A stretch of 64,000 nt of DNA from Gemmatimonadota bacterium (GTDB lineage: Bacteria > Gemmatimonadota > Gemmatimonadetes > Gemmatimonadales > GWC2-71-9): the NCBI GenBank assembly GCA_036679605.1, contig JAZDCZ010000407.1, forward strand, positions 32,001-96,000, written 5' to 3'. A program made the position numbers and the translations under genes. The stretch's first letter is position 1, and every line of letters begins with the position of its first letter. Positions 2-59,211 of this stretch are shown here, in pieces. The notes beneath the pieces are model-generated. The model did no database searches. It was given only the letters and a program-made list of their open reading frames with translations, and was not told the DNA's origin.

Positions 2-3000
2 GCCAAACAACAGTATTGGCACGGGTCGTCGGGCGTCAACATCAGGGAAATCGCCTCCGCAGGGTTTGTGAACCCATGGGTCCCAAAGGGCGAGTCGTGC
101 AGGGGTTATCAGAAGCCTATGTCCGGACGCACATACGCCACGACGGATCTCAGCTATGCCCTTATTTATGCCCTCGGCGCGGCGATGGTCGGGCAAGAGC
201 TTCCGAACAACCAAAATTTCGACGGCGAGGGCGGTATTGTATTATTGGAGGCTGGCGGCGATCCGCTGCCGGATGAGGATTGGGTCGGTGAGTTGATTGC
301 GGAGTGTGAGAGCCGCCGCAGGCGGATGCGGGGCGATCTGAACGCTAGGGGAGGTGATGTACCAGAGTGGAAGGAAAACCTCTACATTGAGATGCGCAGG
401 CAACTGCCGCCCGAGGTTGTGTCTATGATCGACCGAAAGCCTATCTGGAAGCTTGACGAGATGGCCACGCAGTCCATGATTGGGAAGAATGTGAACAAAT
501 GGCTCCTCAAGCATGATGGCGCGCTAAAGACGAAACTCGTACATCACTCGCCGCACCATTCCTATGCGGGAACCATGCGGGTGATCAAGGCGTGGGTATT
601 TAACAAGCGGGAGATAAGCCCTAAGTTGGAGAAGGACGGTTCCAATTTCCTGAAGTTGGCGATGGAGATTCCGGTCGCGAAGGCTGTATCCGCGTCGTTA
701 TGTTCGTACGATGACTACAAACCCTATTCTTGTTCGCCGAGTGGCGTGTGTATGCCGTCGCGCGTCACACCTGATATTCATGATGCCGTGAGCCGCTTGT
801 TCGGCGGAAAATGTCCCTGTCCTAGATGTAAATCTGTGGACAGGACTGCGTCATCGGTGGAGGACAAGTGTTGGTCGCACGCGGTCGAGGCCCTCGCGGC
901 GAATGGGTTTGAGGACATGGATGGCATGTGTTTAGAGGCGTCAGTCGTGCTTTGTGAGAGGCTCCGTGACGAGGGCGTGGACGCGAGATTGGCGCGGCGA
1001 TGGTCGGACGAATACGGTGGACATTGGACGGTCTGCACCTCGGCTGGGGAGTTCGATCCGACAATCGCTTGGTGGGGCGACTCCGCACCAAAGGGAGCCT
1101 CAAAGGGCCAGTTATACGAGGTGACAAATGTCAGTCCGCACGCCGGATGGGAGAAGGACGACTCGGTGGATGAATCCACTGCGTACCGGATCGCGATAGA
1201 AGAGTTGGGTGTGGATGATTTGGAAAATCTGTACGACAACGCCCTAGAGGGGATTCTTTCCCGCAGTGCGCGTCGTGTCGCAATGCCATATCTTCACGAG
1301 CCAAAGTGTCCCTACTGCGGTCACATGGGGCCGCAGGATCCAAAAGTGGAGTTCTGGGAGTCCTTATCGGATGACTATCGCGGTTTCCTAGAGAGGTACT
1401 ATGGCACCGAAGACAGGCTGGAGATAGCGCGTAAGCTAATGTGGGATCGCACGGTACCGACATATTGCGGTAAATGCGGGCAGACATACCTTTTCGAGAA
1501 GTCGGAATCTGATTCGCTTGCCGAGAAGGTTGCTGGGCGTTTTAAGGCATGGCACGGCACGAGCGACATCCTGCTGGACGATATCCACACCGCAGGCGGC
1601 CTGATTGACCCGTACCTCGCCGCGACACTATCGCTGGCGGAGTATTATGCGGGCGTGGCTGCAGAGAATGACGGTGGCTCGCCAATTGTGCTGGAGATCG
1701 ATATCCGTGACAGATCTAGGCTCCGATATGATGGCAACGCCATGGACGAGCCAGTCACGGTTGGCGTGAGCGAGGCCGACAGAGATTTCGAGTGGGGGCG
1801 CGCCGAGAAGGAACACCCTGAGTGGGTGCATGGCGACACTATATCCATACCAGCGGACGAGTGGGAATACTCTTGGCGCGGCGCACATTCGGTGCGGTAC
1901 GACGGCCTGTTGCCGTCGTCCGGCATAAGCAGTACGGCTTGGGAGAGCAGATCGGAGGGCAGCGACTTCGGCAGGGAGGCGTCCGCCACATTGACATTCG
2001 GCGCGTTGCCGCCCGCCGTGCAGACCGACATAACGGACAACATACACGACATGTTCTTCGCCGGGACGGATGTGAGCCGTGAGATATTGCGCGGCGTGCT
2101 GGAGGACATGGACACGCCGTTGCCGGTGCGACGCCTTCCCGTTGCCGACTTGGCTGGGCAGGCACGATCGACGCACTGCGTGTCGGAGACGGTCGTGTCC
2201 ACATTGGCGGACACGCTCCGCCGAGTCGGCGATCTGGATCTAGTACTCACTGATGGCGTCCGTTTCCTCGATGGCGGACACAGGGTGATGGCATACGAGT
2301 CCGAGGGCAAGGGCAGCATCCCGACCGTGGATGTCTCATCCCTGCTGTCTGCGGACTGGGAGTCCGAGTTCCGCGAGGACATTCTAGGACTCGGCAGAGC
2401 CGCGAGACGAATCCTGGCCACCGCAGTCCGGTACTGGCACGGCACCACCGCCGCCGCGATGCGCTCGGCCGAGCGTGACGGGTACCTGCGCCCGCCCGTG
2501 TACCTGGCCGACTCCCCGGAGGCTGCTAAGGAGTTCGCGGAGATGGCCTCGGACGACGCCTGTGACCGTTCGGTGGTGCTGGAGATCGTACTTCCCGAGG
2601 ACAGGGTTGCCCACCTCCGCGCCGACGCTGGATTTGACGGTGCCCCTGGTAACTTTGTTCTGAATGAGACCGTCCCGCTAGAGTGGATTCCGTGGTATCC
2701 AAATCCAGAAGATTCCGATCCCACTATGGCGTCCGCGCTGTTCTGCGCGGCCGTTAAGGCGACATCGGCGTCTGGGCTGGACTTAGCTGCTATCCGGGAG
2801 TTCTTAGAGTCTAAATGGGCCGCGAGGGGCAGGCCAGAACCTGGCCAGAATTGCATCACCACGGCGTCCTTCCTCTCCAAGCTGATCTCTGGCGCGGAGG
2901 TGCGGGGTGGACAGCCGGAGGGACACAGAAATCTTGTGCGGCATGGACTTGCCACGGATGAGGAATCTCGCTCCGGCGGCGGTTATAAAGATGACGAAGG

Positions 3001-6000
3001 TTACCTCTACCCCCACTTATGGGTGGAGTCCAATGGCATGGTATATGACCTGACGGCTGACCAGTTCGGCGGTGATCCGGTCACAGTCGTCCCCTCCGGC
3101 GGGCGGTATGTGCCATCAGAACTGTCCGAGAAGAATACACGCGCCCTCCGAGCGGTAGATGCGGAGACGGACGCTTGGTTGGAGGAATGGATGGCGCAGG
3201 CCAACACAACATCCGCCGCGCTCATTCTCTACCACGGTACCGCTATTCCCGACCTTGACAAGCTGCGTGTCGGCTCCGGGGCGGAACACATGCGCGTCGC
3301 GGGCGTGTACCTCTCCAAGAGCCGTGACGAGGCTGAGAAATACACCAAGGTGGCCGGAGTCAGACACCCTGAGAATATCCTCACGGTCGAAGCTAAACTG
3401 TCCAACCCCGCCACAAGGGACACGCTCGACGGAATGGATCGTCGCTTAGACGGATGGCAGGCACAGGCCGAACTTATCCGCCGTGGGTACGACAGTGTAA
3501 TCGATGATTTGATGGACGAGGTGATCGTGTTTGACCCCGCGAGGTTAAGAATTCTTGGAGACCGCACTGCAGCGACGGTCGACGAGTTCCTCGACCCTGT
3601 CATAGCCTCCACTCCATCGCCGTACCCATCATTGAAATGGGTAAAGAATCAACTCCAATACTGTTCGATGTGGTTGCCGATCCTTGACGCCTACATCATT
3701 GGCAGCGAGGCAAAGGGTACAGCCAGCCCAGATAGTGACTTGGACATCGCCGTGATCATCGGCGATGTGTCGCATTCGACATCGATCAGGTTCAGTGAGG
3801 ACTTCCACAGTGAGCAGATTGAACTCCCAGATTGGCAAGGACGCCAAGTGGATTTCCAGTTTTTCTACCCAGACGACCCTGAAATAAAAGAGTACTCGAA
3901 AATCCCCCTCGCCCCAGACTCCGAGTACACCAACACGACAGAAGCACTCAGGGAGAAGCTTATTCAGCGGGGCATCATCTCTGCGTCCCTCTCTTCGACC
4001 GCCCGAAGTGAGACGGCGACCGCGTACAAGACTCTGGCCACCGCCTTCTCGCGAGCCGCCTCTGCCGTGATCCCGCCGCTGAGCATGAGGGCATACCGCG
4101 CGGAGGGTTCCAGCCGAGGGGTGATGGCGGACGCCATGCTGGGCGGGATATACTTCTTCCCGAGGCGGGATACAGCCGAGCTTTGGGCTGGGGATCGCGG
4201 CACAGTGGTCGGGTGGATGATCGACACGAGCGACGCGGATGTGCAGGATGTGCCGGAGGGGGAGATGATCCGCAGGGACTCGGATGTGATAATCCGCCGC
4301 GACCCAGACGGGAGTGGCGATGTGCTGGAGATAGTGGTGTTTGACGATTCACTAATCCATCCGTTGGATAATCACACACACGCGGCTAGGCAAACATTCG
4401 AGTTGAGTACCCTCGGAGATACGGTCTCGTACGATGATGAGCTATATCACGGTACATCTATCAAGGCGGCCGCAGCGATAGCGAAGCGTGGGTTCAGCGT
4501 CGAGCAGCACGGCGAGATGAGCTGTGGCACCATATCGCTGACGAGGAATCCTGTCGCGGCGCAAATCTTCGCCGGACACGATGGCGTGGTTTTCGAGTTC
4601 GATATATCGCTTCATCGCTTGTTCGTCCTCCCCGAGTTCGTTTACGACGCCATGGGCTGCTACGCGGGAACAGGCATGTGTGGCGATGACTTCGTGCGCA
4701 GGATGTCGGAGAATGCCGACGCACTGAAGCGAATCGGTGCGGTGCCTGAGTCTTGGGATTCGGAGTCTGGGGAGCCGCCGGATTGGTCGGAGTGGAGAGA
4801 CAGCGACATGGACGAGTTCGGCTGGCTGGAGCGGTCGCTGCCCGGTTATGACGGCGTCGTCGTGCCTGGGTTCGACAGCAACCATCCGCGCGCCGAGGCG
4901 GAGATCGCCTTATTCATGCCCGCCACCGCTCGCCTCAAAGAGTCGGTCTCGGCGATGTATGTCGGCGAGAGGGAATACTGGAAGGGCGGCCCAGAAACCG
5001 AGTCCTTGGATGATGGTTGGGATGTCCTCGCCGGAATGGGAACGGACGAAGATGACGAAGAAGGGATGGAGTTGGACGCCGCTCTCTCGAAGGCTGCACG
5101 TGCCCTAGGCGAGCACCTCGGCGACACGGTGACTGCGTACAGAGCGCTCGCCACTGAGCACGCCGAGAAGGTCATGCAAGAGGGCTTCATGGGTCCCCAT
5201 CACGCACACGGTGTCTATTACACCGCCAGCCCAGAGCGGGCTATGTTCTACTCCAGGTTCATGGCGTCGTCCAAACTCCAAGGCGTGATATTCGAGTTGG
5301 AGGCCGACACCAGCCGTTCGACGGCTGATGTGAACGACACCACCGAGTGGCAGTCCAATGAGCTGTACGAGGAGGTCAAGTCGGCTGCGGGCGACATGGT
5401 CGAGACGGTATATAAGAACACTGAAACGCGGTTATGGGACAGCGACGCCGCAAGGTTACTGGAGTCATGGCTCGGCGGACTCACAGTGTCGGAAGGCTAC
5501 TACGATTCGCCGGAGCAGCACTCCGTGTGGCAGTTGCTCGCGGACGAGACCAAGGGGACGGACAGCGAGATGACGATCTCCGAGGCCAAGGACGCCCTGC
5601 CCCCCGGCAGGTACGGCGGGATGACGGTGCTGGACAGTCGAGGCGTCGCGGGGATCGACGCAGGTGAGATGGATGGTCAGGCCCAAGCGAAGTCCCAGGA
5701 GGGGATACCGGCGGACAGGCTGAAGGCCATATGGATTCCGACGGCCATGCTGCACTCTGCCGGAGTGGATGCCCCGGCTGGGGCGGAGACGATGGAGGAT
5801 TATGTGGATGTCATCCCAGCCAAATTTAACATGGACTACGACATTGACTTCGTCTCCGAGATCGAGAAACAGAGGGACGATGCTAGGGAAACAGGACCAC
5901 CACCAGGACTGGACAAGGAGGCTGAGGAGGTGTGGCATCTCGGAATGGAGGCGGTGGCCGATGAGATGGACTCCATCTTGGACAGGTGGCGGGACGAGGG

Positions 6001-6763
6001 TGACTCCACCATGCCAGGTCACATCTACTCGAAGCTTATTACGGGTGAAAGAGTGACCCCAGAGGACCTCGACCGCGAGGAGGGGTTCGTCAGGTATCCA
6101 TTGCCGCAGGGCAGGCTGCTTGTGACGAAGATACTGCGGAAGGCGATCGCGAGGCAGGGTCGGCGACCCGCTGAAGGGAAGGCCGCCCGGAGGGCGGCCT
6201 TGGATGACGATATAACGCACATCCTTCGGCACGCCGCTGATGGCATGGGTTGGAGCGAGGAGAGCGATGTTGATCCGGACAGTTTCGTTGACGAGGGGTT
6301 CATGGAGGACGAGAGTGGACACACCTTCTGGGGTTCGCGGGGAAGTGGGCTGCTTTTTGTGCGCAGCCATCCAGATCACGGTTGGGAATTATTGCTTGTA
6401 AAACGGTCACCAATAGTGGAGGAGCCGAACACATGGGGAACGACTGGTGGCGCGGTGCCGAAGGACGAGAATAACTTGTTCGCCTCTGCCGTGCGGGAGA
6501 CTCGGGAGGAGATAGGCGGTATCCCGCCATATGAGGCGGTCAGACAATATGTGTGGAAGGCTCTCGGCGGCAGCTTCACATACACGACATTCATTTTGGA
6601 ATGCACCGACATGGATTGGATGCCATCCGTATTTAACTGGGAGGCCACAGCCGCCCAATGGGTATCTCTCAAGGAAGCTAAGTCATATGAACTACATTTT
6701 GGTTTGGTGTCTATTTTGAAGGATTTGGGTGAGTCCATATTCCCCGCAACGGAGGATGTATGA
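2..6763 (+). CDS. Giant multidomain (polyvalent) protein, 5'-truncated by the window: about 7 ART-like domains, 2 papain/transglutaminase-like domains, Zn ribbon, ParB-like domain, nucleotidyltransferase, C-terminal Nudix
   Basis: Frame is open from base 2 (AKQQYWHGSS...). Repeated [YW]HG[TS]/AYRA plus downstream [VI]Y[LF][ST] and E-x-x-F motifs; C..HW..D motifs; DGGHR; GSxAxG..DSDLD; GG..E...A.RETREEIG Nudix box. Confidence 0.8.
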   Translation, partial: AKQQYWHGSSGVNIREIASAGFVNPWVPKGESCRGYQKPMSGRTYATTDLSYALIYALGAAMVGQELPNNQNFDGEGGIVLLEAGGDPLPDEDWVGELIAECESRRRRMRGDLNARGGDVPEWKENLYIEMRRQLPPEVVSMIDRKPIWKLDEMATQSMIGKNVNKWLLKHDGALKTKLVHHSPHHSYAGTMRVIKAWVFNKREISPKLEKDGSNFLKLAMEIPVAKAVSASLCSYDDYKPYSCSPSGVCMPSRVTPDIHDAVSRLFGGKCPCPRCKSVDRTASSVEDKCWSHAVEALAANGFEDMDGMCLEASVVLCERLRDEGVDARLARRWSDEYGGHWTVCTSAGEFDPTIAWWGDSAPKGASKGQLYEVTNVSPHAGWEKDDSVDESTAYRIAIEELGVDDLENLYDNALEGILSRSARRVAMPYLHEPKCPYCGHMGPQDPKVEFWESLSDDYRGFLERYYGTEDRLEIARKLMWDRTVPTYCGKCGQTYLFEKSESDSLAEKVAGRFKAWHGTSDILLDDIHTAGGLIDPYLAATLSLAEYYAGVAAENDGGSPIVLEIDIRDRSRLRYDGNAMDEPVTVGVSEADRDFEWGRAEKEHPEWVHGDTISIPADEWEYSWRGAHSVRYDGLLPSSGISSTAWESRSEGSDFGREASATLTFGALPPAVQTDITDNIHDMFFAGTDVSREILRGVLEDMDTPLPVRRLPVADLAGQARSTHCVSETVVSTLADTLRRVGDLDLVLTDGVRFLDGGHRVMAYESEGKGSIPTVDVSSLLSADWESEFREDILGLGRAARRILATAVRYWHGTTAAAMRSAERDGYLRPPVYLADSPEAAKEFAEMASDDACDRSVVLEIVLPEDRVAHLRADAGFDGAPGNFVLNETVPLEWIPWYPNPEDSDPTMASALFCAAVKATSASGLDLAAIREFLESKWAARGRPEPGQNCITTASFLSKLISGAEVRGGQPEGHRNLVRHGLATDEESRSGGGYKDDEGYLYPHLWVESNGMVYDLTADQFGGDPVTVVPSGGRYVPSELSEKNTRALRAVDAETDAWLEEWMAQANTTSAALILYHGTAIPDLDKLRVGSGAEHMRVAGVYLSKSRDEAEKYTKVAGVRHPENILTVEAKLSNPATRDTLDGMDRRLDGWQAQAELIRRGYDSVIDDLMDEVIVFDPARLRILGDRTAATVDEFLDPVIASTPSPYPSLKWVKNQLQYCSMWLPILDAYIIGSEAKGTASPDSDLDIAVIIGDVSHSTSIRFSEDFHSEQIELPDWQGRQVDFQFFYPDDPEIKEYSKIPLAPDSEYTNTTEALREKLIQRGIISASLSSTARSETATAYKTLATAFSRAASAVIPPLSMRAYRAEGSSRGVMADAMLGGIYFFPRRDTAELWAGDRGTVVGWMIDTSDADVQDVPEGEMIRRDSDVIIRRDPDGSGDVLEIVVFDDSLIHPLDNHTHAARQTFELSTLGDTVSYDDELYHGTSIKAAAAIAKRGFSVEQHGEMSCGTISLTRNPVAAQIFAGHDGVVFEFDISLHRLFVLPEFVYDAMGCYAGTGMCGDDFVRRMSENADALKRIGAVPESWDSESGEPPDWSEWRDSDMDEFGWLERSLPGYDGVVVPGFDSNHPRAEAEIALFMPATARLKESVSAMYVGEREYWKGGPETESLDDGWDVLAGMGTDEDDEEGMELDAALSKAARALGEHLGDTVTAYRALATEHAEKVMQEGFMGPHHAHGVYYTASPERAMFYSRFMASSKLQGVIFELEADTSRSTADVNDTTEWQSNELYEEVKSAAGDMVETVYKNTETRLWDSDAARLLESWLGGLTVSEGYYDSPEQHSVWQLLADETKGTDSEMTISEAKDALPPGRYGGMTVLDSRGVAGIDAGEMDGQAQAKSQEGIPADRLKAIWIPTAMLHSAGVDAPAGAETMEDYVDVIPAKFNMDYDIDFVSEIEKQRDDARETGPPPGLDKEAEEVWHLGMEAVADEMDSILDRWRDEGDSTMPGHIYSKLITGERVTPEDLDREEGFVRYPLPQGRLLVTKILRKAIARQGRRPAEGKAARRAALDDDITHILRHAADGMGWSEESDVDPDSFVDEGFMEDESGHTFWGSRGSGLLFVRSHPDHGWELLLVKRSPIVEEPNTWGTTGGAVPKDENNLFASAVRETREEIGGIPPYEAVRQYVWKALGGSFTYTTFILECTDMDWMPSVFNWEATAAQWVSLKEAKSYELHFGLVSILKDLGESIFPATEDV

Positions 6764-18014: not shown

Positions 18015-18089
18015 GGGAGTGTAGCTTAGTCTGGTTAAAGCAGTCGACTCATAATCGACCGATCGTGGGTTCGAATCCCACCGCTCCCA
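18015..18089 (+). tRNA. tRNA with CAT anticodon (elongator Met or Ile2)
   Basis: Full cloverleaf: GGGAGTG/CGCTCCC, GTCGA-CTCATAA-TCGAC, GTTCGAATC; no encoded CCA. Confidence 0.9.
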
Positions 18090-28629: not shown

Positions 28630-28647
28630 AGAGTTATGGCGGGCAAA

Positions 28648-28719
28648 AGCTGCTGGTCGGAGTCGAACCCACAATTCGGACTTACAAAATCCGCGTGTTA
28701 CCGTTGACACTACAGCAGC
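28648..28719 (-). tRNA. tRNA-Thr(TGT)
   Basis: GCTGCTG/CAGCAGC; CGGAT-TTTGTAA-GTCCG; one T-stem mismatch. Confidence 0.85.
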
Positions 28720-28723
28720 AGAA

Positions 28724-28795
28724 TCGTGGCACTCGGATTCGAACCGGGAACCTCAGCTTTATGAGAGCCGCGCTCTTCCAATGAGCTATGCCACG
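28724..28795 (-). tRNA. tRNA with CAT anticodon (Met or Ile2)
   Basis: CGTGGCA/TGCCACG; CGGCT-CTCATAA-AGCTG. Confidence 0.85.
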
Positions 28796-28798
28796 TAA

Positions 28799-28870
28799 CT
28801 TACCGGACGGGAGTCGAACCCGCGACAATTCGCTTAACAGGCGAATGCTCTGCCACTGAGCTACCGGCAA
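28799..28870 (-). tRNA. tRNA-Asn(GTT)
   Basis: TTGCCGG/CCGGTAA-G; TTCGC-CTGTTAA-GCGAA. Confidence 0.9.
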
Positions 28871-28873
28871 GAC

Positions 28874-28946
28874 CTGCAGGGGTGGGAATCGAACCCACAA
28901 TGACCGCATTAACAGTGCGGCGCTCTACCAGTTGAGCTACCCTGCA
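28874..28946 (-). tRNA. tRNA-Asn(GTT)
   Basis: TGCAGGG/CCCTGCA-G; CCGCA-CTGTTAA-TGCGG. Confidence 0.9.
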
Positions 28947-28952
28947 ATAACA

Positions 28953-29013
28953 AGCTGGCCCGGGAATCGAACCCGGAATATCCACTCGCTCTACCAGATT
29001 GAGCTAGGCCAGC
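28953..29013 (-). pseudogene. tRNA-like gene lacking the anticodon arm
   Basis: Acceptor, D-arm (GCTC..GAGC) and T-arm present; only GAGTGGATATT lies between the D- and T-arms. Confidence 0.8.
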
Positions 29014-29029
29014 AGTTCCCTTCCTTCAA

Positions 29030-29103
29030 AGTCGCCACCGGGATTTGAACCCGGACCGCCTGGGTGGAAGCCAGGTATGCTATCCGTTAAACACCACGGC
29101 GAC
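29030..29103 (-). tRNA. tRNA with TCC (Gly) anticodon, atypical acceptor
   Basis: GTCGCCG/TGGCGAC-T; CCTGG-CTTCCAC-CCAGG. Confidence 0.85.
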
Positions 29104-29114
29104 GCAGTAAAAAA

Positions 29115-29188
29115 AGTCGCTGGCGGGATTCGAACCCGGCACCTCCTCGATGGCAACGAGATGTGCTACCGTTAAACACCACAACGAC
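29115..29188 (-). tRNA. tRNA with GCC (Gly) anticodon, atypical acceptor
   Basis: GTCGTTG/CAGCGAC-T; TCTCG-TTGCCAT-CGAGG. Confidence 0.85.
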
Positions 29189-29235
29189 AATTTGGCTTCT
29201 CCTCTGCCTCCTGTTTCATCAGATCACCCCCTGCA

Positions 29236-29296
29236 CTCAAACCTCCGCCCTTCGGCTTCGCAAGCCGACGCTCTGATCCAATTGAGCTACATGGAC
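29236..29296 (-). pseudogene. Truncated tRNA-Arg(GCG)
   Basis: D-arm and TCGGC-TTGCGAA-GCCGA intact; 3' T-stem and acceptor strand missing. Confidence 0.75.
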
Positions 29297-29305
29297 TCAT
29301 CCAAA

Positions 29306-29373
29306 AGCCACCGGAGGGAATCGAACCCCCGCCATCTCCTTACGAAAGAGACAGGTTACCACTACACGGTGGC
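29306..29373 (-). tRNA. tRNA-Thr(CGT), D-stem shortened
   Basis: GCCACCG/CGGTGGC-T; TCTCT-TTCGTAA-GGAGA. Confidence 0.7.
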
Positions 29374-29443
29374 AAAATGGGTCTGGGATCAATTTGGGTT
29401 ACCCCCATAAGCGTAAAAGCCCGCCGGCTATCCCAGACCCAAA

Positions 29444-29513
29444 AGCCGCCGACGGGAGTCGAACCCGCGATCTCTTTTTTACCGAAAAAGTCTTCCAACT
29501 GAGCTACAGCGGC
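29444..29513 (-). tRNA. tRNA-Thr(GGT), ~3-nt deletion at the D-stem 3' side
   Basis: GCCGCTG/CGGCGGC-T; CTTTT-TCGGTAA-AAAAG. Confidence 0.7.
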
Positions 29514-29522
29514 GTACCAACG

Positions 29523-29556
29523 AAAAAAGCCCCGAAGACTTTCGTCTCCGGGGCTT
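29523..29556 (-). terminator. Intrinsic terminator (putative attenuator) upstream of the tRNA array
   Basis: AAGCCCCGGAGAC-GAAA-GTCTTCGGGGCTT then T-run. Confidence 0.9.
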
Positions 29557-29581
29557 CGCAAATTCAGTTCAATGCGAAAGC

Positions 29582-29680
29582 TTAGCCGAGGACGCACCTC
29601 CGTCCGCGCGTACCATTATTGGTTGTCCCGGCCATGTCGTTACGGAATGTAGATGCGCTCGTTTGCATAACTTTCACCAT
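29582..29680 (-). CDS. Putative attenuator leader peptide MVKVMQTSASTFRNDMAGTTNNGTRGRRCVLG
   Basis: Lies between promoter and terminator; Thr/Asn/Gly/Arg/Met codons match the array anticodons; alternative ATG starts at 29668 and 29635. Confidence 0.65.
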   Translation of the reverse strand: MVKVMQTSASTFRNDMAGTTNNGTRGRRCVLG

Positions 29681-29684
29681 TTCC

Positions 29685-29713
29685 AGTGTATCGCGCCACC
29701 GAGCCATAGTCAA
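29685..29713 (-). promoter_or_regulatory. sigma70-type promoter of the leader and tRNA array
   Basis: TTGACT-N17-TACACT. Confidence 0.8.
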
Positions 29714-29859: not shown

Positions 29860-31758
29860 TCAATGTACTTCAAACTCTGCGTCTATGACATCGTCCTTTT
29901 CCGGCGGATCATTATCACCCCCTTCTTGGCCATCATCGACCGTCGCTCTTTGTGTTGCCTCGTATATCGCCTTGCCCATCTCCTGCGCGTCGCACATGAG
30001 CGAATCTCTAGCCTTCTCGATGGCGACCGTGTCGTCGCCTTTCAGAGTATCCCGTAGGGAAGACACGCTGGATTCGATCTTGGATCTTGTCTCTGCCTGT
30101 ACTTTGTCCCCGAACTCCTCAAGCTGTTTCTCCGTCTGAAATGCCAGTGCGTCTGCCTGATTTCGAAGCGCGACCAGCTCAGCCTTCTTTTTGTCGTCGT
30201 CGGCGAAGGCCTCTGCGTCCCGTTTCATGCGTTCGATTTCATCTTTGCTAATCCCACCGCCGTCCTCTATCCTGATGGACTGCTCTTTTCCGGTGGCCTT
30301 GTCCTTGGCGGACACGCTGATGATCCCGTTTCTGTCGATGTCGAATGCCACATCAATTTGTGGTACGCCACGTGGGGCAGACGCTATGCCGGAGAGGTTG
30401 AATCTGCCGAGCGTGCGGTTGTCGGTCGCCATCGGGCGATCGCCCTGTAGCACATGCACTGTGACTTCCGTCTGACCATCTGCTGCGGTGGAGAATGTCT
30501 CCGACTTGGATGTCGGGATGGTCGTGTTGGCGTCGATGAGCTTGGTGGTTACGCCGCCAAGGGTCTCCAACCCCAAAGCGAGCGGCGTGATGTCGAGCAG
30601 GACGATGTCGTCCTTGTCGCCGGACAGTATAGCTCCTTGGATTGCCGCGCCGATAGCTACCACCTCATCGGGGTTGACACCCTTGCTCGGCTCCTTGCCG
30701 AACAGTTCGTGGCATAGTTCCCGCACGGCTGGTATCCTAGTCGATCCGCCGACCAGTACTACCTCGTCGATGTCCTTTGCGGTCAGTTTGGCACCAGAGA
30801 GCGCGTCAGCGACTGGCTTTCGGCATCTGCTGGTCAGTTTGGAGGTGATTTGCTCAAACTTGCTCCGATTGATGGTTTCTTGTAGATGTTTGGGACCAGT
30901 GTCGGTGGCGGTGATGTACGGCAGATTCACGGTAGACTCCACTGCGGTGGACAGTTCACACTTCGCCTTCTCGGCTGCCTCCCTAAGCCTCTGCCGAGAC
31001 GCTGGATCTGTCAAGATGTCCACCCCCTCCTGCTTGCGGAATCCCTTGGCCAAGTGCGCGACTAACGCCTCGTCGTAGTCGTCGCCGCCGAGATGGCCGT
31101 CGCCGCTGGTACTCAAGACTTCAAAGGTGCCGACATCTGGGTCGATTTCCAGAATGGACACATCGAAGGTACCCCCGCCAAGGTCAAACACCGCGATTCG
31201 CTGCTCCTTTTTTTTGTCGAGTCCATAGGCAAGTGCGGCTGCCGTCGGTTCATTGATGATGCGCTCGACCTTTAGGCCAGCGATCTCCCCAGCGTCCTTG
31301 GTGGCTTTTCGCTGCGCGTCGTTGAAGTATGCGGGGACCGTGATGACTGCCCGCTCAACCTTCTCGCCGAGATAGGCTTCTGCGGTGTTTTTTAGGTCCT
31401 GCAGGATCATGGCACTGATCTCCGCCGGCCCGTATTCCTTGTCTTGAATCTTTATCTTGACTGGGTTCTTGCCTTTGCTGCTGATGACTTTATAGGCAAC
31501 GCCCTTGTCTGCTTCGGACACTTCGCTGCCCCGCCGCCCCATGAACCGTTTGATTGAATGTACTGTGTTCTCGGCGTTTGTGATCTGCTGGTGATGGGCT
31601 GTTTTCCCCACTAGGCGTTCACCCTTGGCCGTTATGCCGACCACGGACGGTGTAGTGCGTGAACCCTGTTCATTCGTCAGCACCTTGGCCACATCGCCCT
31701 CCATCACCGCCACAACCGAGTTTGTCGTTCCCAGATCGATACCTATGATTTTTGTCAT
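29860..31758 (-). CDS. dnaK: Chaperone DnaK
   Basis: [43 protein letters not shown]. Confidence 0.98.
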
Positions 31759-33578: not shown

Positions 33579-34553
33579 TTACCAGCCGAGCAAATAGGCG
33601 AACATCAGGGGTACTACTATCGTTGCGTCTGACTCGATGACAAACCTTGGCGTGTCCGGCGTCAGCTTACCCCATGTGATTTTTTCGTTCGGCACAGCGC
33701 CGGAGTAGGAACCATAGCTGGTGGTGCTATCGCTCACTTGACAGAAGTATTCCCAGCACCGCACCTCCTGTGTCTCCCCGACCGCGACAGGCAAATCCTT
33801 CGCGATCAGCGGTACGACGCATATGGGAAAGTCGCCTGCGATACCGCCGCCTATCTGGAAGAACCCAGTCGGCGAGTCCTCGTTGTTCTGGTACCAGCGC
33901 ACGAGCTCTTTCATGTAGTCCACGCCCGATTTCACGCACGGTTTCGGCAATCTACCGTTGATAAGGCAGGCGGCGTAGCCGTTGCCGAGGGTGGAATCCT
34001 CCCAGCCAGGTACGAAGATTGGCAGGCCTGCCTCCGCAGCGGCTAGGAGCCAACTCGCGGATGGGTCGATACAATACTGACCCTTCAGGTCACCTTCCAG
34101 CAGGGCGGTGCACAGGAACTCGTGAGGGAAAAAGGTCTCGCCAGCTTCGCAGGCGCGGAGCCATCTCGGACGGAGGACATCTTCCAAACGCACCATCGCG
34201 TCCTCTGGTATACAGGTATCGGTGACTCGGCTCATGCCGCTATCATAGATGATTTGCTCCTCGCTCGGCGAGAGGTGTCTGTAGTCCGGCATCCTCTGGT
34301 AACCGTCCGCCGCGATGAGATTGTAAATGTCCTCCTCTAGGTTGGCTCCAGTGCAGCAGATGGCATGGACCTTATCTTGGCGTATCATCTCGGCTAAGGA
34401 AAGGCCGATCTCCGCCGTACTCATCGCGCCAGCCATGGTGAGGAGCATCTTGCCGTCCCGATTCAGCAGTCTCTCATATTCTCTGGAAGCGTCCCTTAGA
34501 GTGGCAGCGTTGAAGTGCCGGAAGTGTCTGTCCACGAATTGCCGAATGTCCAT
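33579..34553 (-). CDS. Deoxyhypusine synthase-like protein (bacterial homospermidine synthase type)
   Basis: HFNAA, AGAMSTAE, TGANLEED, IGGGIAGDF, GSYSGAVPNEKITWGK. Confidence 0.92.
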   Translation of the reverse strand: MDIRQFVDRHFRHFNAATLRDASREYERLLNRDGKMLLTMAGAMSTAEIGLSLAEMIRQDKVHAICCTGANLEEDIYNLIAADGYQRMPDYRHLSPSEEQIIYDSGMSRVTDTCIPEDAMVRLEDVLRPRWLRACEAGETFFPHEFLCTALLEGDLKGQYCIDPSASWLLAAAEAGLPIFVPGWEDSTLGNGYAACLINGRLPKPCVKSGVDYMKELVRWYQNNEDSPTGFFQIGGGIAGDFPICVVPLIAKDLPVAVGETQEVRCWEYFCQVSDSTTSYGSYSGAVPNEKITWGKLTPDTPRFVIESDATIVVPLMFAYLLGW

Positions 34554-34927
34554 TCCTTCTCCTCTGTTATTTTCCACGCGCGGTCGATTAGCTTGGCCCG
34601 ACCATCAAAAGGTGACCATAACGAGTCGATGTGCATCAACACCGCTTTGGACCGGAACGCCATACAGGAATAGAGGCAGAAGCTAAGCCTGCCAGACTCG
34701 TCCGACTCTGCCGACCACCAATGGAACGCCGCGTGGGATGTGCTGATGACCAGTATTCCTGTGATGCCTTCGTTCCCTTCGTCCAAACATTTTACACACC
34801 GCGCTGGCATGAGTGTATTCATGCCCACCAATGGCGGCAGGGCGTCCAGCCACGCCGTGCAGGCGGCGATGTCTGGGGTAGCTGCCACGCGGGCGTTGAC
34901 CATTAGATGCATGTGTTGGCTCGGCAT
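34496..34927 (-). CDS. speD: S-adenosylmethionine decarboxylase-like pyruvoyl enzyme
   Basis: HMHL, GNEGITG..VISTSH..FH.W, YSC..F. Confidence 0.8.
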   Translation of the reverse strand: MPSQHMHLMVNARVAATPDIAACTAWLDALPPLVGMNTLMPARCVKCLDEGNEGITGILVISTSHAAFHWWSAESDESGRLSFCLYSCMAFRSKAVLMHIDSLWSPFDGRAKLIDRAWKITEEKEWTFGNSWTDTSGTSTLPL

Positions 34928-35613: not shown

Positions 35614-36717
35614 ATGAAGCTGGATTTCGCTGAATTTTTCGCTGGCATGGGGCTTGTCCGTGTTGGTTTGGAGCCGTTTTGGCAATGTTGCTATGCCAAC
35701 GATATAGATGCCATAAAGGGCAAAATGTACCAAGCATTGTTTCCGGACTCCGCCGAGTTCCACTTGTGCGACATTTGGGAGACCGACGAGGTGATATTGC
35801 GGGCAGGTTCGCCCTTCCTTGTGACTGCGTCCTTCCCGTGTACAGATCTCTCACTCGCTGGCGTGCAGCGTGGCCTGTCTGGAGCTGGCTCCGGAGCTTT
35901 CCATGGCTTAATGCTTGTCATGCACGAATGGCTGTCGGCGGGCAAACTTCCGCCCATGGTCATGTTGGAGAATGTACACGGGTTCGTCACTGGCCGCAGT
36001 GGGCGGGATTTCAGGACAGTGTGTGGCGAGTTGCGGTCGCTTGGCTATTCGCTTGATGCGATTTCCCTAGACGCGAGGCATTTCACGCCTCAAAGCAGGC
36101 CTCGCATCTTCATCGTCGGGTTTCTTGGGGAACCGCCTGACAATATGTTTGGCGAGAGGCCGACGATCCTACGCCCACCTGCATTGGTGTCCGCGATGGC
36201 ATTAGAGGGCGGGCGGTGGTCTGGCTTCCGGTTCTCTGAGCCGCCGGAGATGAATGTTCCGTTGGAATCCATTTTGGACTCTGGGGATGGCCAAGATTGG
36301 TGGACTGAGGAACAGGTTGATAGGCATGCCGCTAGTATGAGCCGCGCACACAAAGATCGCCTCGCAAGCATTGTTCCGGCAGTCGTACCAGCGTTCAGGA
36401 GGACGCGCAATGGAAAAGTGAGGCTTGAGGTGCGGTTTGACGGATTGGCAGGTTGTCTCCGGACGCCCCGCGGTGGCAGCGGGAGGCAGATCATCGTGAG
36501 GGCGGCTATCGACGGAAGTCTGGCGATGAGGTGGATGACATCCACAGAGTACGCTCGGCTTCAGGGCGCGCCGCATCCAGGCATCGCCGTCTCTGAAAGG
36601 CAAGCGATGTTCGGTTTCGGCGACGCCGTGTGTGTGCCAGTGATTTCTTGGTTGAATCACAATCTTCTGTCGCCTCTGGCCACCCACCTCCGCCGGGAAC
36701 TAGCTAGAATCCACTGA
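35614..36717 (+). CDS. DNA (cytosine-5) methyltransferase
   Basis: EFFAGMG, SFPCTDLS, LENV, QSRPR, EYARLQG, FGDAV. Confidence 0.93.
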   Translation: MKLDFAEFFAGMGLVRVGLEPFWQCCYANDIDAIKGKMYQALFPDSAEFHLCDIWETDEVILRAGSPFLVTASFPCTDLSLAGVQRGLSGAGSGAFHGLMLVMHEWLSAGKLPPMVMLENVHGFVTGRSGRDFRTVCGELRSLGYSLDAISLDARHFTPQSRPRIFIVGFLGEPPDNMFGERPTILRPPALVSAMALEGGRWSGFRFSEPPEMNVPLESILDSGDGQDWWTEEQVDRHAASMSRAHKDRLASIVPAVVPAFRRTRNGKVRLEVRFDGLAGCLRTPRGGSGRQIIVRAAIDGSLAMRWMTSTEYARLQGAPHPGIAVSERQAMFGFGDAVCVPVISWLNHNLLSPLATHLRRELARIH

Positions 36718-37343
36718 TGAAGTTCCCCAACCTGAAGATAGTGCGGCACCCTTTGATCCAGGAGAAACTTACGCGCATCCGCGACAGACACACGGGTAGC
36801 CCAGAATTCAGGATCCTACTTTCGGAGATCGCGGAGTTGATGGCCTATGAGCTGACGGCGGATTTTCCCGTGAGGGATGTCGTGGTTGAGACCCCTCTCG
36901 CCGTCATGACTGGTGCTGAGTTGGCCATAGGCGTCACGCTTGTGCCGATAATACGAGCAGGACTAGGGATGTTGGACGGCATCTTGCGTTTGGTGCCGCA
37001 GGCTAAGGTTGGGCATGTTGGGATGTACAGGGATGAGGACACGCTTGAGCCAGTCGAGTATTACGGGAGATTGCCAAAGGATGCTGCCGACACCAATATC
37101 ATCGTCATCGACCCCATGCTCGCGACTGGCGGCTCATGTAGTGCGGCGGTGTCGAAGCTAGGGGAGTCGCACAGCGTGAGGGTGCTGTGTCTCGTGGCGT
37201 CGCCGGAGGGTGTTGCCCGCATGCTGGAGGATCACCCACTCGTGACGGTCTATGCGGCGGCGTTGGACGAGAGGCTCGACCACAGGGGATATATTCTGCC
37301 CGGACTGGGCGACGCGGGCGACCGCATATACGGCACAACATAA
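36717..37343 (+). CDS. upp: Uracil phosphoribosyltransferase
   Basis: HPLI, PIIRAGLGM, DPMLATGGS, GYILPGLGDAGDR. Confidence 0.97.
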   Translation: MKFPNLKIVRHPLIQEKLTRIRDRHTGSPEFRILLSEIAELMAYELTADFPVRDVVVETPLAVMTGAELAIGVTLVPIIRAGLGMLDGILRLVPQAKVGHVGMYRDEDTLEPVEYYGRLPKDAADTNIIVIDPMLATGGSCSAAVSKLGESHSVRVLCLVASPEGVARMLEDHPLVTVYAAALDERLDHRGYILPGLGDAGDRIYGTT

Positions 37344-47819: not shown

Positions 47820-50081
47820 ATGCTGTTCGGGAAGAATATGATCATGAGCAAGACTCTCTACATATTAGTCGGTCTGCCAGGGTCCGGTAAGTCATGGTAC
47901 GCGACGCACGAGTTGAAGGCTGTGAGGCGGGTGAGCCAAGATGATATGGGCAGAGATGTGCATATGAGAGCCTTCACCGCCGCCTTGGCTGCTGACGAGT
48001 CCGTGGTTGTGGATCGCGTGAACTTTGACCGCAGCCAACGGGAGAGGTACATCACCCCTGCCAGGCAGCGCGGCTACCATATCGTATGCGTCTGGTTCGA
48101 TGTGGATCGGGCGACTTGTATGAGGCGGCTGTCTGGGAGGAAGGGACACCCGACCGTGTCTAAGGACGATGACCACGAGCGAATAGTGGGACACTTCGCC
48201 AAGATGATGGTGCAGCCGCTGGGGGACGAGTACGACGAGTTGAGGGTGGTGTCCAAGCGCACGCACGCGAAGGTGGAGGACATACGGGATGAGTGCGAGG
48301 GCAGGCGGACTATCGTCGTGGGCGATATACACGGCTGCTTCGACGAGTTCATGCTCCTCCTGCAAAAATGTGGATATAGCCCAGAGGACATCGTCGTGAG
48401 CGTCGGTGACTTGACTGATCGCGGACCGAAGAGTCGAGAGACATTGGAGTGGTTCTACAGCACGCCCGGGACGCATGTGGCGGAGGGGAACCACTGCAAC
48501 AAACTGAGACGGCTCTGGTCCGGACGCCGGGTCAAGATATCCAATGGATTGGGTTCCACAATCGAGCAGTGCGATGGCATGGATCATAAGGCAATCGCCG
48601 CGTGGATGTCCCTGTGGCCGCAGATCATTCGAGTCCCAGACATCGGTGGTCTGCCTGCGTATGTGGTACACGCCGGCGTGGACGGGACCCGTCCGATCGA
48701 CAGACAGAAGGTGGAGGATTGTTTGTACGCGCGGTGTCTCGGAGGCAAGGACTATTTTGACGAGGACGGCGGGGCGTGGTGGTATCACACACTGGACGGC
48801 TCGTTTGTCGTGTTGAGTGGACACGCTATCCATGACAATCCGCGCCCAGTGGAGTGTGCATATCTATTGGATGGTGGCGCATTCCAAGGCGGGACGCTAC
48901 GGGCTCTGGTGATCAATGGTGAGGGGACGGAGGTGTTCGAGGTGGACAGTTCCGGCTATGTGACGTCGACTGAACCCAAGACTCCGGTGCAAGCGAGGGA
49001 GGAACTCGTTGCGGAGGGTTTGATCCGTAAGGATGAACTCGGGGACTTGGCCGTCTACACATACACAGATGCCTGCGTGCATGCGCGCATGTGGGACAAC
49101 ATCACCATCAACAGCCGAGGTCATGTGTTTAATCGAGTCACAGGGGAATGCGTCGCGTGGTCGTTCCCGAAGTTCTTCAACATGGGCGAGATGCCAGAGA
49201 CGCAGGAATATGTCCTGCCGTGGACTGGGGGTTTCGCGGCGTTCGAGAAGATGGACGGATGGTTGGGTAACCTCTATAGGCTGGATGACGGGCAATATGC
49301 GATATCCACGCGAGGTTCTTTCAAGAGTCCTGGCGCACTCTGGGCGACGCAATTCCTACGGGACAACCATGACCTGTCCGGCCTGCCGGACGATGTCACG
49401 CTCGTGTTTGAGCTGATAAGCCCGATCACGAGGATCATAGTGGACTACGGTGACAAAGAAGCTCTCACACTTCTGGCGGCCTTCAACAGGCACACTGGGG
49501 AGGAGTACGCTTGGCATAGGGTTATGGAATGGGCTAGTATATACAAGTTCATCACGCCGACGGTGTATTGTGGGGATTTCGCGGAATGCCGCGCCACCTT
49601 GGCTCATAGCTCCGGCAAGGACATGGAGGGATTCGTCGTGAGGTTTCACAACGGCTTGCGGGTCAAGGTGAAGGGCGAGGATTATCTGCGCCGTGCGAAA
49701 ATAGTTTCCAATATGACGCCGCTGTCCGTGTGGGGCGCCATGTCGTCGGGCAAAGTGTTGGACGAGTACCGCGACGCGGTGGACGCGGATTACAGGGGAC
49801 AATTGGACGCCATGGCTGATGAATTGGAAGAGCGGTGGGCCGCAGTAAATGAAGAAATAGACAGTGAGTTCGCCTGTAGCTTTCCGGGAATGACTGCCCA
49901 AATATCCGATGAACACGAAGGCAGGAAGGGTTTTGCCGAGAGAGTTGGGAACCTGACGCTGCGCCACAGGCGCGTGATGTTCGCCAGACTCGACGGAAAG
50001 TCGGAACTCATTGACAAGTACATAATGGGGATCATCAGGCCCCATAACAACGAAATGAAGGTGATAAATGGTGATTCGTAG
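47820..50081 (+). CDS. Polynucleotide kinase + metallophosphoesterase + Rnl1-like RNA ligase fusion
   Basis: GLPGSGKS/SQD; GDIHG, GDLTDRG, GNH; SRG..FPKFFN, EKMDG, FELI, EGFV, RVKVK. Confidence 0.9.
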   Translation: MLFGKNMIMSKTLYILVGLPGSGKSWYATHELKAVRRVSQDDMGRDVHMRAFTAALAADESVVVDRVNFDRSQRERYITPARQRGYHIVCVWFDVDRATCMRRLSGRKGHPTVSKDDDHERIVGHFAKMMVQPLGDEYDELRVVSKRTHAKVEDIRDECEGRRTIVVGDIHGCFDEFMLLLQKCGYSPEDIVVSVGDLTDRGPKSRETLEWFYSTPGTHVAEGNHCNKLRRLWSGRRVKISNGLGSTIEQCDGMDHKAIAAWMSLWPQIIRVPDIGGLPAYVVHAGVDGTRPIDRQKVEDCLYARCLGGKDYFDEDGGAWWYHTLDGSFVVLSGHAIHDNPRPVECAYLLDGGAFQGGTLRALVINGEGTEVFEVDSSGYVTSTEPKTPVQAREELVAEGLIRKDELGDLAVYTYTDACVHARMWDNITINSRGHVFNRVTGECVAWSFPKFFNMGEMPETQEYVLPWTGGFAAFEKMDGWLGNLYRLDDGQYAISTRGSFKSPGALWATQFLRDNHDLSGLPDDVTLVFELISPITRIIVDYGDKEALTLLAAFNRHTGEEYAWHRVMEWASIYKFITPTVYCGDFAECRATLAHSSGKDMEGFVVRFHNGLRVKVKGEDYLRRAKIVSNMTPLSVWGAMSSGKVLDEYRDAVDADYRGQLDAMADELEERWAAVNEEIDSEFACSFPGMTAQISDEHEGRKGFAERVGNLTLRHRRVMFARLDGKSELIDKYIMGIIRPHNNEMKVINGDS

Positions 50082-51666
50082 ACAGAAAATGACGATGCTC
50101 GTCAACTCGGTCGCTGGGGAGACCCGTGTGGCTATATGCCGAGATGGGCGACTGGAGGAGCTGTGGGTCGAACACTCAGATCAGGTTTCGCCCGTTGGTA
50201 ACATCTACAAGGGAAGGGTGACGAATGTGGAGCGTAGCCTCCAGGCCGCGTTCATCGATTGCGGGTTCGGCAAGGAAGGCTTCCTGCATGTGTCCGATAT
50301 ACTCCCTCGGTATTTCCCGAAGAAGCGCAAGAACGAGCGGATCGGGAACCGCACGCGCAGGAGTGATCGCCCTACGATCGAGAGCTGCCTCCGGAGGGGG
50401 GATGAGGTCATCGTACAGGTCATCAAAGATGGTTTCGGACATAAAGGTCCGGCCTTGAGTACATATATATCGCTTCCCGGCAGGATGTTGGTTATGTTGC
50501 CGTATAGCACTGGATCAGGAGTGTCCCGCCGCGTGGTTGATATCGAGAAGAGGCGTGAACTCAAGAAGATGCTTGCTGGGATGAGACTGTCGAAGGAGGC
50601 AGGTTTCATACTCCGCACGGCAGGCAATACTGGTGGTCTGACCGAATTTCAGGCAGACGCCAAGTATCTCGTTGAATTGTGGGAGAAAGCTGAACGCAGG
50701 ATGAAGCGAAAGGCTCCCACGGAGGTACTGCATGAGCGAGGCTTGGTTACGCAGATTCTGCGGGACAGGTGGACTAAGGACTTCGATCAGGTGATCGTGG
50801 ACAGTAGGGAGGACGCAGCAGCAGCACGGGCATACTTGAAGGCGACAGCTCCGCGGATCAAAAGGAAACTGGTCACGCTCCACACCGGCTCGCCCATATT
50901 CGAGAAATATGGCATCGAGAGCGATGTCGAAGGGTTGGCTGGCAGGAGCGCCCCACTTCCGTCTGGTGGACACATAGTCATCGATCAGACCGAGGCTTTG
51001 GTCGCGGTGGATGTGAACTCAGGCAGGACCAAAAGCAGGAACAGCGAAGACACCGCGCTTAAGACCAATTTAGAGGCTGCCACAGAGGTGGCCAGACAAC
51101 TTAGGCTGCGAGATCTCGGCGGTCTAGTCGTTGTGGATTTCATAGACATGGTGAGCCACCGGAATCGTGTCAAAGTGGAAGAGACACTGTCCAAAGCTTT
51201 GGCACAGCACAGGGAAAAGGCTCAGGTGTTGCCGATGAGTGAGTTTGGTATAATTGAGATAACGCGGCAGCGTAGCAGACAGTCTGTGGCTGCAGCCTTA
51301 CACGCCACCTGCCCTCAGTGTTCAGGCAGCGGGAAGATAGAGTCGCTCGCGTCGTCCGTGGCGTCCATACTACGGCAGATGCGATCTGCGATATCCGCGA
51401 ATCCAAGATGCAGGATACGCGCTATGGCTCCTACGGAGATTGTCACGGAGGTTTTTAATCGGCATCGGGAAGAGATGGATAGACTAGAGTCTCTGGCAGG
51501 TGCGCCAGTGGAACTTTTGGCAGGGGGGAGGACGGATGTTAGCATTGGACAGCCCGCGACGCACGGTGGAAAAACAAGTGAAAAACCAAGTGGACGCGGG
51601 AACAGTAGAAAGAGGAGGCGTCGTAGAAAGAGCCGAGGCAACAAAGTGGCCAAGGCGGTTGGATAA
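50068..51666 (+). CDS. RNase E/G family endoribonuclease
   Basis: GNIYKGRV, AAFID, DQTEALVAVDVNSG, LRLRDLGGLVVVDFIDM, CPQCSGSG. Confidence 0.95.
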   Translation: MVIRRQKMTMLVNSVAGETRVAICRDGRLEELWVEHSDQVSPVGNIYKGRVTNVERSLQAAFIDCGFGKEGFLHVSDILPRYFPKKRKNERIGNRTRRSDRPTIESCLRRGDEVIVQVIKDGFGHKGPALSTYISLPGRMLVMLPYSTGSGVSRRVVDIEKRRELKKMLAGMRLSKEAGFILRTAGNTGGLTEFQADAKYLVELWEKAERRMKRKAPTEVLHERGLVTQILRDRWTKDFDQVIVDSREDAAAARAYLKATAPRIKRKLVTLHTGSPIFEKYGIESDVEGLAGRSAPLPSGGHIVIDQTEALVAVDVNSGRTKSRNSEDTALKTNLEAATEVARQLRLRDLGGLVVVDFIDMVSHRNRVKVEETLSKALAQHREKAQVLPMSEFGIIEITRQRSRQSVAAALHATCPQCSGSGKIESLASSVASILRQMRSAISANPRCRIRAMAPTEIVTEVFNRHREEMDRLESLAGAPVELLAGGRTDVSIGQPATHGGKTSEKPSGRGNSRKRRRRRKSRGNKVAKAVG

Positions 51667-59201: not shown

Positions 59202-59211
59202 GGCGGGTTAT

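Follow-up and report, generated by a model that had tools for sequence, protein, structure and literature searches.

The subject of the present analysis is an array of transfer RNA (tRNA) genes, together with the short segment of DNA preceding it, on the minus strand of a stretch of 64,000 nucleotides from a Gemmatimonadota bacterium (hereafter referred to as the window). The window corresponds to bases 32001-96000 of C343, a contig of 155,416 bp in an assembly of 6.7 Mb and 434 contigs (96.5% complete, with 6.3% contamination), and the contig as a whole carries 24 tRNA genes in five places. In the segment before the array under study (A2), a promoter-like site, a short open reading frame (ORF) and a strong intrinsic terminator follow one another between the gene for an Hsp70/DnaK protein and the first tRNA (Table 1). 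An earlier description made from the letters of the window alone (hereafter the original prediction) had proposed this succession, with a leader of 32 codons whose codons match the anticodons of the array, and had likened it to the leader-peptide attenuators of the trp, his and thr type. The promoter, the ORF and the terminator were all recovered in the present analysis.

Table 1. Features of the A2 locus, of its two complete paralogues and of the surrounding element. Positions refer to the window unless the contig (C343) is named.
Feature	Position	Strand	Basis or remark
Promoter-like site TTGACT-N17-TACACT	29685-29713	-	9/12 consensus matches
A2 leader ORF, 32 codons and stop as first read	29582-29680	-	ORF reading
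Run of nine putative regulatory codons, GGG ACA ACC AAT AAT GGT ACG CGC GGA (G T T N N G T R G)	29603-29629	-	ORF translation
Region 1, 5' half of the long hairpin, pairs with region 2 in untranslated RNA	29650-29677	-	Minimum free energy (MFE) fold
Region 2, 5' strand of the predicted antiterminator: last codons, stop TAA (29584-29582), GCTTTCGCA	29573-29594	-	Folds
Region 3, TGCGAAGCCCCGGAGACG, pairs with region 2 (antiterminator) or region 4 (terminator)	29543-29560	-	Folds
Intrinsic terminator, stem of 14 pairs (8 G-C), GAAA loop, run of six T	29523-29557	-	Stem 29557-29526, T-run to 29523
First A2 array member, defective D-stem	29444-29513	-	39.5 bits; GGU (Thr) by Infernal, GTA (Tyr) by ARAGORN
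tRNA-Thr (CGT), defective D-stem	29306-29373	-	ARAGORN, Rfam, Infernal alignment
Sub-threshold tRNA-like stretch, loop GCG (Arg) read by eye	29232-29296	-	24.9 bits against 29; no ARAGORN call
tRNA-Gly (GCC)	29188-29115	-	ARAGORN and Rfam
tRNA-Gly (TCC)	29103-29030	-	ARAGORN and Rfam
tRNA-Asn (GTT) x2, tRNA-Met (CAT), tRNA-Thr (TGT)	28648-28947	-	ARAGORN and Rfam
Unit A3, leader MLMIAATREQEQAAEARGVSG	before C343:115276		Array Glu-CTC, Ala-GGC, Ala-CGC, Gln-TTG, TCA tRNA
Unit A4, leader MMNLTLSPWLLPYLPEEGVT	before C343:131701		Array Leu-TAA, Trp, Leu-TAG, Tyr, Pro-CGG, Pro-TGG
Hsp70/DnaK gene, 632 aa, upstream of the A2 unit, stop at 29860	29860-31758	-	Family match
Fusion of kinase (AAA_33), calcineurin-like phosphoesterase and T4-type RNA ligase 1, 753 aa	47820-50081	+	Domain matches
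RNase E/G-family protein, 532 aa, directly after the RNA-ligase fusion	50068-51666	+	Domain match
Polyvalent protein, 2231 aa (ART-PolyVal, nucleotidyltransferase, NUDIX)	68-6763	+	Domain matches
TnpB / IS605 OrfB-type gene, 387 aa	21866-23029	-	Family match
TnpB / IS605 OrfB-type gene, truncated, 260 aa	C343:154517-155299		Family match
Host-like gene, deoxyhypusine synthase	33579-34577	-	Family match
Host-like gene, glutamine synthetase	59173-60579	+	Family match
Host-like gene, FtsH	61633-63684	+	Family match
Host-like gene, uracil phosphoribosyltransferase	36717-37343		Family match

The promoter-like site is one of seven such sites between positions 26000 and 32000, as against 3.0 +/- 1.6 in shuffled sequences, and its -35 TTG and -10 TA.A.T occur at equal spacing in the units preceding two other arrays of the contig. 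Upstream, the leader frame stays open over 93 codons, as far as the region of the dnaK stop (29863). The customary distance from the -10 box predicts a transcript start at about 29678, which lies inside the first ATG (29680); therefore the ATG at 29668, which gives a leader of 28 codons and has a Shine-Dalgarno-like GGTGA (29678-29674) 5 nt upstream of it, is the more plausible start. The terminator attains -25.8 kcal/mol when folded alone. The first tRNA (29513) begins 9 nt past its T-run and no promoter-like site was found on the array strand inside the A2 array, so that the array must be transcribed through the terminator. A near-consensus promoter-like sequence, TTGATT-N17-TATAAT (10/12), is present at 29863-29835 on the minus strand, right at the dnaK stop, and a hydrophobic ORF of 33 codons (29829-29728, minus strand; MGRLLNILGTDSEGLKRGLWILFLTLVCTVAMW) lies directly upstream of the A2 unit; the latter has no family match in the domain and PHROG scans. 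Over the A2 locus only tRNA families reach the gathering score of their Rfam models, the best match to a leader family being His_leader, whose 22.3 bits (E = 0.72) fall short of its gathering score of 49, and the T-box covariance model has no match in the window.

ARAGORN and Rfam (RF00005, gathering score 29 bits) concur on eight tRNAs between 29513 and 28648 on the minus strand. The identity of the first is disputed, Infernal aligning its anticodon loop as UCGGUAA, which gives GGU. The array also contains a tRNA-like stretch (28950-29011) in which the acceptor, D and T arms are present but the anticodon arm is missing and, between its first two tRNAs, a spacer of 64 nt that forms a hairpin with a perfect stem (29378-29441), while an acceptor and T-arm minihelix is found right after the terminator of another unit of the contig (A4; C343:131575-131618). 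These odd elements could be decayed tRNAs or processing signals.

The nine consecutive codons pointed out earlier as readable by the array are all present in the leader. Seven of them are read by the confidently called tRNAs Gly-TCC, Gly-GCC, Thr-TGT, Thr-CGT and the two Asn-GTT, while ACC depends on the disputed first array member (29513-29444; Thr-GGU or Tyr-GTA) and CGC on the sub-threshold stretch at 29296-29232. The probability of such a match was assessed with a null set of 22,428 ATG-to-stop ORFs of 18-36 codons drawn from the whole assembly. A run of nine cognate codons, using the anticodon set of the original prediction, is reached by none of them (0/22,428), and the cognate-codon fraction of A2, when only the confident tRNAs are counted, by 29.

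A DNA search of the assembly with the A2 leader gave a hit at a further site of C343, immediately in front of another tRNA array, and inspection of the 400 nt before each array head disclosed two further complete units, A3 and A4, each with promoter, short ORF, the motif TAAGCT and terminator; the ATG of A3 is preceded by GGAG at 7 nt. The terminator motif has three copies on C343, all of them before tRNA arrays, and one elsewhere in the 6.7-Mb assembly, which is unrelated. Terminator-like hairpins stand directly before 3 of the 24 tRNAs of C343, as against 2 of 69 elsewhere in the assembly. The three units align at the promoter, the last codons, TAAGCT and the terminator and diverge in the coding middle (69% mean column identity), and to judge from this alignment the unit resembles a cassette whose codon block can be exchanged. 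Each leader matches the amino acids of its own array (initiator excluded) at 14/31 codons in A2, 10/20 in A3 and 10/19 in A4, compared with 1/31 to 5/19 for the cross-matches among them, a comparison that controls for the general codon usage of the element. Of the 22,428 null ORFs, 55 (A2), 1 (A3) and 25 (A4) attain the cognate amino-acid fraction, and 2 (A2, run of 7), 0 (A3) and 5 (A4) the cognate amino-acid run. A fourth unit, A5, before an array of Lys, Lys, Arg and Arg, has a paralogous promoter sharing GCGCGATACAC and an ORF rich in Lys and Arg.

The last member of the A3 array is a tRNA of 71 nt with the anticodon TCA (C343:115749-115819, plus strand; selenocysteine tRNA by ARAGORN, 62.3 bits in Rfam), which may be a UGA-reading suppressor; the long ORFs of the window are open under the standard code. 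A lone tRNA-Met (18015-18089, plus strand) begins 3 nt past the T-run of a strong terminator, itself located after an ORF of about 80 codons with a hydrophobic stretch and a good Shine-Dalgarno sequence. The Met codons of this ORF are not visibly enriched, as judged by eye and with no count, and the arrangement seems to differ from that of the attenuator units.

Units of this kind were also sought in the viral contigs of IMG/VR with the pattern GGGCTTTTTT within 8-24 nt of a tRNA D-arm, no criterion of leader content being applied. The pattern identified 43 viral loci, of which 27 have 0-1 tRNA and 16, falling into seven groups, have at least two. Six of the seven groups were testable and one was dropped, as its upstream DNA is cut off by the end of the contig. 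The six groups are AT-rich and unrelated to C343 and have an identical layout of leader ORF, terminator and array. The leader MQTTLVNIIEAMEAIMVEGAEVCL precedes tRNAs for Ala, Val, Met, Met, Ile and Glu; the leader MIKPVTTTFCWCPKQGAMS, which contains ...TFCWCP..., precedes Trp and Cys; and the leader MFNFVQPCLYWSLFSHINVNRDKFVY precedes Phe, Tyr, Ser, Trp, Cys, Ser, Leu, Leu, Pro and Gly. Three of the viral-contig leaders were also compared with the phage collection in search of cultured relatives, and none has a match there.

The pairing of leaders and arrays was examined by permutation over the nine units (A2, A3, A4 and the six viral groups). Leader frames were assigned by a content-blind rule, namely a frame with an ATG 12-60 codons before its stop and the stop 35-70 nt before the T-run, the last 20 codons being scored, and the array was taken as all same-strand ARAGORN tRNAs within 1300 nt. 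The rule yields one candidate frame in 8 of the 9 units. The true pairing is reached by 4 of 500,000 permutations for all nine units, by 1/720 for the six viral units alone and by 1/6 for the three units of C343 alone. A cruder frame-blind rule, which took the wrong frame in three units, gives 49/200,000, and scoring of the nine units at the codon level under strict wobble gives 3/300,000. The covariation between upstream ORF and array content that had been predicted for other arrays is thus seen both in the paralogues on the contig and in unrelated viral groups.

In all nine units a canonical G+C-rich hairpin with a T-run lies between ORF and array, and 46-62 nt separate the stop codon from the T-run. 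The 167-nt A2 leader is strongly structured (MFE z = -3.98 versus shuffles), and when untranslated it folds into the long hairpin of regions 1 and 2, followed by the terminator. The effect of translation was modelled by removing the RNA up to the 3' edge of the ribosome and folding the nascent RNA as far as the terminator loop. When the A-site is placed at least 7 codons short of the stop, the 5' arm of the terminator is captured in 9/9 units by a helix of -12 to -31 kcal/mol (A2 -17.9 kcal/mol at codons 19-21, A3 -26.5, A4 -21.7), and in 9/9 units this helix is gone when the ribosome occupies the last ~5 codons or the stop. The antiterminator pairing proposed for A2 and the competing GGACG/CGTCC hairpin both appear in the folds, and the antiterminator shares sequence with the 3' end of the ORF, which agrees with a trp/his/thr-type layout. 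Region 1 is absent from A3 and A4, and therefore their default in the untranslated state would be read-through. Single-sequence folds reveal compensatory changes, with GUC[U]CC:GG[A]GAC in A3 replaced by GUC[A]CC:GG[U]GAC in A4 and GCU[U]:[A]AGC in A2 by GCU[G]:[C]AGC in A3 and A4. The RNAalifold consensus of the three paralogues (-4.35 kcal/mol, 2 compensated pairs) is uninformative, MAFFT having misregistered the TAAGCT of A4.

Relatives about 90% alike in contigs of three other sequencing runs, from at least two other studies, cover the A2 leader and terminator. In one of these contigs the gaps recorded within the ORF add up to 9 nt, and the same contig (run X3) links the leader side (29518-29642) to the far end of the array (28646-28752), so that 147 letters replace 765 and the array is shorter; these differences suggest a coding constraint on the leader together with a variable array. 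Other routes gave no further A2-type loci. The neighbouring dnaK gene led to nothing in the viral contigs, and the corresponding metagenome scan returned 62 loci (best 73% and 68% identity), none of which has a tRNA array behind dnaK. The A2 leader DNA has a match in none of 200 other genomes of the family to which the assembly belongs. A pattern of TAAGCT plus terminator identified 31 viral loci, 0 of them with tRNAs, and a pattern specific for the terminator family identified 85 loci (84 stretches in species genomes and 1 in a viral contig), none with a tRNA downstream of the hairpin.

Taken together, these observations make it probable that A2 controls its tRNA array by ribosome-mediated transcription attenuation, through a leader peptide. 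The giant phage-like contig carries at least three paralogous units of this kind. In this model transcription would begin at the promoter at 29713-29685, and a ribosome would translate the leader ORF behind the advancing RNA polymerase. Fast decoding of the Thr, Asn and Gly codons (and those for Met and Arg) would bring the ribosome to the last codons or the stop, where it would mask region 2 (29594-29573); the terminator of regions 3 and 4 could then form and transcription would stop 9 nt before the first tRNA. If cognate charged tRNA were scarce, decoding would be slow and the ribosome would lag, regions 2 and 3 would pair, no terminator would form and the polymerase would enter the array. 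As the array would supply exactly the tRNAs that are sensed, the circuit would constitute a negative feedback on tRNA supply. The model presumes that the leader is translated, from the putative start given above, and that read-through depends on the ribosome, with the kinetics and the physiological trigger proposed here.

Several observations weigh against this interpretation. The nine-codon run needs two doubtful tRNA-like genes; with the confident tRNAs only, the codon run falls to 4, a length reached by 238/22,428 null ORFs. The two tRNAs at the head of the A2 array (29444-29513 and 29306-29373) have broken D-stems and may be non-functional. The transcript start of A2 is a predicted one, with the first ATG (29680) located at or before it, and the GGTGA preceding the ATG at 29668 is a weak Shine-Dalgarno sequence. 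The codon fit of A3 is poorer, since 6 of its 10 codons for cognate amino acids fit under strict wobble and its GAA and GCA codons are not read by the anticodons CTC, GGC and CGC. A5 has no intrinsic terminator and its match is weakly significant (349/22,428 null ORFs), and one viral group (L213) is weakly matched to its array, at 0.30 against a mean of 0.19 for other leaders. The folding criterion for the antiterminator is only modestly specific, as a capture of at least 0.65 is also observed in 9/28 ordinary gene-end terminators, compared with 7/9 units. In addition, in a naive equilibrium model of A2 the hairpin of regions 1 and 2 re-forms around a ribosome stalled at codons 10-19, and a clean switch appears only when pairing across the ribosome is forbidden. 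No orthologous A2 locus was obtained as sequence in the dnaK-neighbour, DNA and pattern searches, and no RNA run was found among the runs listed for the A2 stretch.

Among the proteins encoded by C343 are DnaK, FtsH, glutamine synthetase, a member of the RNase E/G family, a polyvalent protein of 2231 aa, TnpB and DNA methyltransferases, as well as head-maturation-protease-like and tail-fibre-like proteins (PHROG). Capsid, portal and terminase proteins were not found among the 77 ORFs scanned with PHROG (29 of the window and 48 of at least 230 aa elsewhere on the contig). This gene content suggests that the contig represents a giant phage-like element. The kinase, phosphatase and RNA ligase domains of the 753-aa fusion are those of the T4 Pnk/Rnl1 tRNA-repair pathway, and this repair-type fusion and the adjoining RNase E/G protein could act on array transcripts or on cleaved tRNAs.

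The most sensible signal for such an attenuator is a shortage of specific tRNAs, as a lack of amino acids would not be remedied by additional tRNA. Loss of isoacceptors to host anticodon nucleases might be the trigger, its support being the genomic context, in the form of the tRNA-repair-type fusion enzyme. The same switch could nevertheless answer to amino-acid starvation or general translation stress, the arrays being co-regulated with translation capacity. Leaders of the classical kind react to the level of charged tRNA irrespective of what has changed it, and the match at the amino-acid level equals or exceeds that at the codon level (0.50 versus 0.30 in A3; diagonal sums 4.25 versus 3.50). 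However, added tRNA would relieve no amino-acid lack, which would leave the feedback purposeless; within one genome the leaders match only their own array, which fits the supply of specific tRNAs; and the element also encodes the tRNA-repair-type enzyme. We therefore regard this other signal as unlikely, though it fares best among the alternatives.

Slightly less probable again is an explanation in which the codon-matched ORF is translated and acts after transcription, through the processing or stability of the precursor or the access of RNase P or RNase E/G, or in which the leader RNA or peptide acts in trans. The window encodes an RNase E/G-family protein of its own and the A2 leader is strongly structured, as its z value indicates, and attenuator-derived small RNAs and peptides acting in trans are described for trpL of Sinorhizobium (PMC6614838, PMC7298713). 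The hairpin and T-run found in every unit, and the stop codon 46-62 nt upstream of that T-run, are however the geometry expected for the control of termination.

That nothing at the locus is regulatory, an ordinary terminator of the upstream dnaK/small-ORF transcript being followed by leak-through into the array and the 32-codon frame being due to chance, is highly improbable, since in spite of a frame open for 93 codons across the whole spacer, a modest promoter score (9/12) and the unrelated tRNA-Met at 18015, which also stands behind a terminator after an ~80-codon ORF with no Met enrichment visible by eye, the unit recurs with conserved promoter and terminator behind different upstream genes and its codon match is beyond chance (0-55/22,428 null ORFs; 4/500,000 permutations).

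Extending the attenuator interpretation of A2 to the viral groups, we lean, with rather less assurance, towards the view that unrelated large phages carry sensors of tRNA supply that are modular and matched to codons, with a separate leader-peptide attenuator, composed in the codons of its block, in front of every set of tRNA genes. The speed of the ribosome would report a scarcity of particular host tRNAs, or their cleavage by tRNA-targeting defences, only the matching set would be switched on, and the unit would be a swappable cassette that places tRNA genes as a new class under ribosome-mediated attenuation. The titles and abstract openings found in the literature contain no prior description of attenuation of tRNA genes. 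The purpose and control of phage tRNA genes is a long-open question. If the proposed mechanism is true, the arrays would be inducible by a decoding shortage, and the codon-compensation and counter-defence views of these genes would be linked to one testable mechanism. Leader-peptide attenuation, a textbook mechanism, would be extended to non-coding RNA genes, and the sequences of leaders would predict the tRNAs that a phage expects to lose. A design in which promoter and terminator are shared and the codon cassette can be exchanged would also lend itself naturally to the construction of synthetic sensors for the translation speed of particular codons.

Phage tRNAs have been proposed to replace depleted or cleaved host tRNAs (PMC10264068, PMC11464382, PMC11555353), and the titles and abstract openings of these counter-defence proposals describe no sensing circuit that switches an array. 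The attenuators of amino-acid operons have also been the subject of modelling (PMC1183508).

Among known systems, the closest in layout are the attenuators of enterobacterial operons, some of which have multivalent leaders, such as the thr leader with its Thr and Ile codons and those of ilvGMEDA and ilvBN, in addition to the trp and his leaders. Like these, the present units have a promoter, a short ORF in which codons specifying several amino acids form a regulatory run, a terminator and an alternative pairing over the end of the ORF, and A2 shares with trp the hairpin of regions 1 and 2. Unlike them, the regulated genes here are tRNAs and not enzymes, and the units lie in phage-like DNA as a modular family with swapped codon cassettes. 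They also differ from the Rfam leader families in having no sequence membership (His_leader at 22.3 against 49 bits), and A3 and A4 differ from trp in lacking region 1, with read-through as the expected default when translation is absent. The pheST attenuator of Escherichia coli, with its pheM leader peptide, controls an aminoacyl-tRNA synthetase operon. It resembles the present units in that a leader attenuator governs a decoding component for the amino acid that is sensed, and differs in that it concerns one protein enzyme and a single amino acid on a bacterial chromosome. T-box riboswitches similarly sense the state of a specific tRNA and switch between terminator and antiterminator before translation-related genes; the T-box RNA, however, binds the uncharged tRNA directly and requires no ORF, whereas in the units described here the ribosome would be the sensor.

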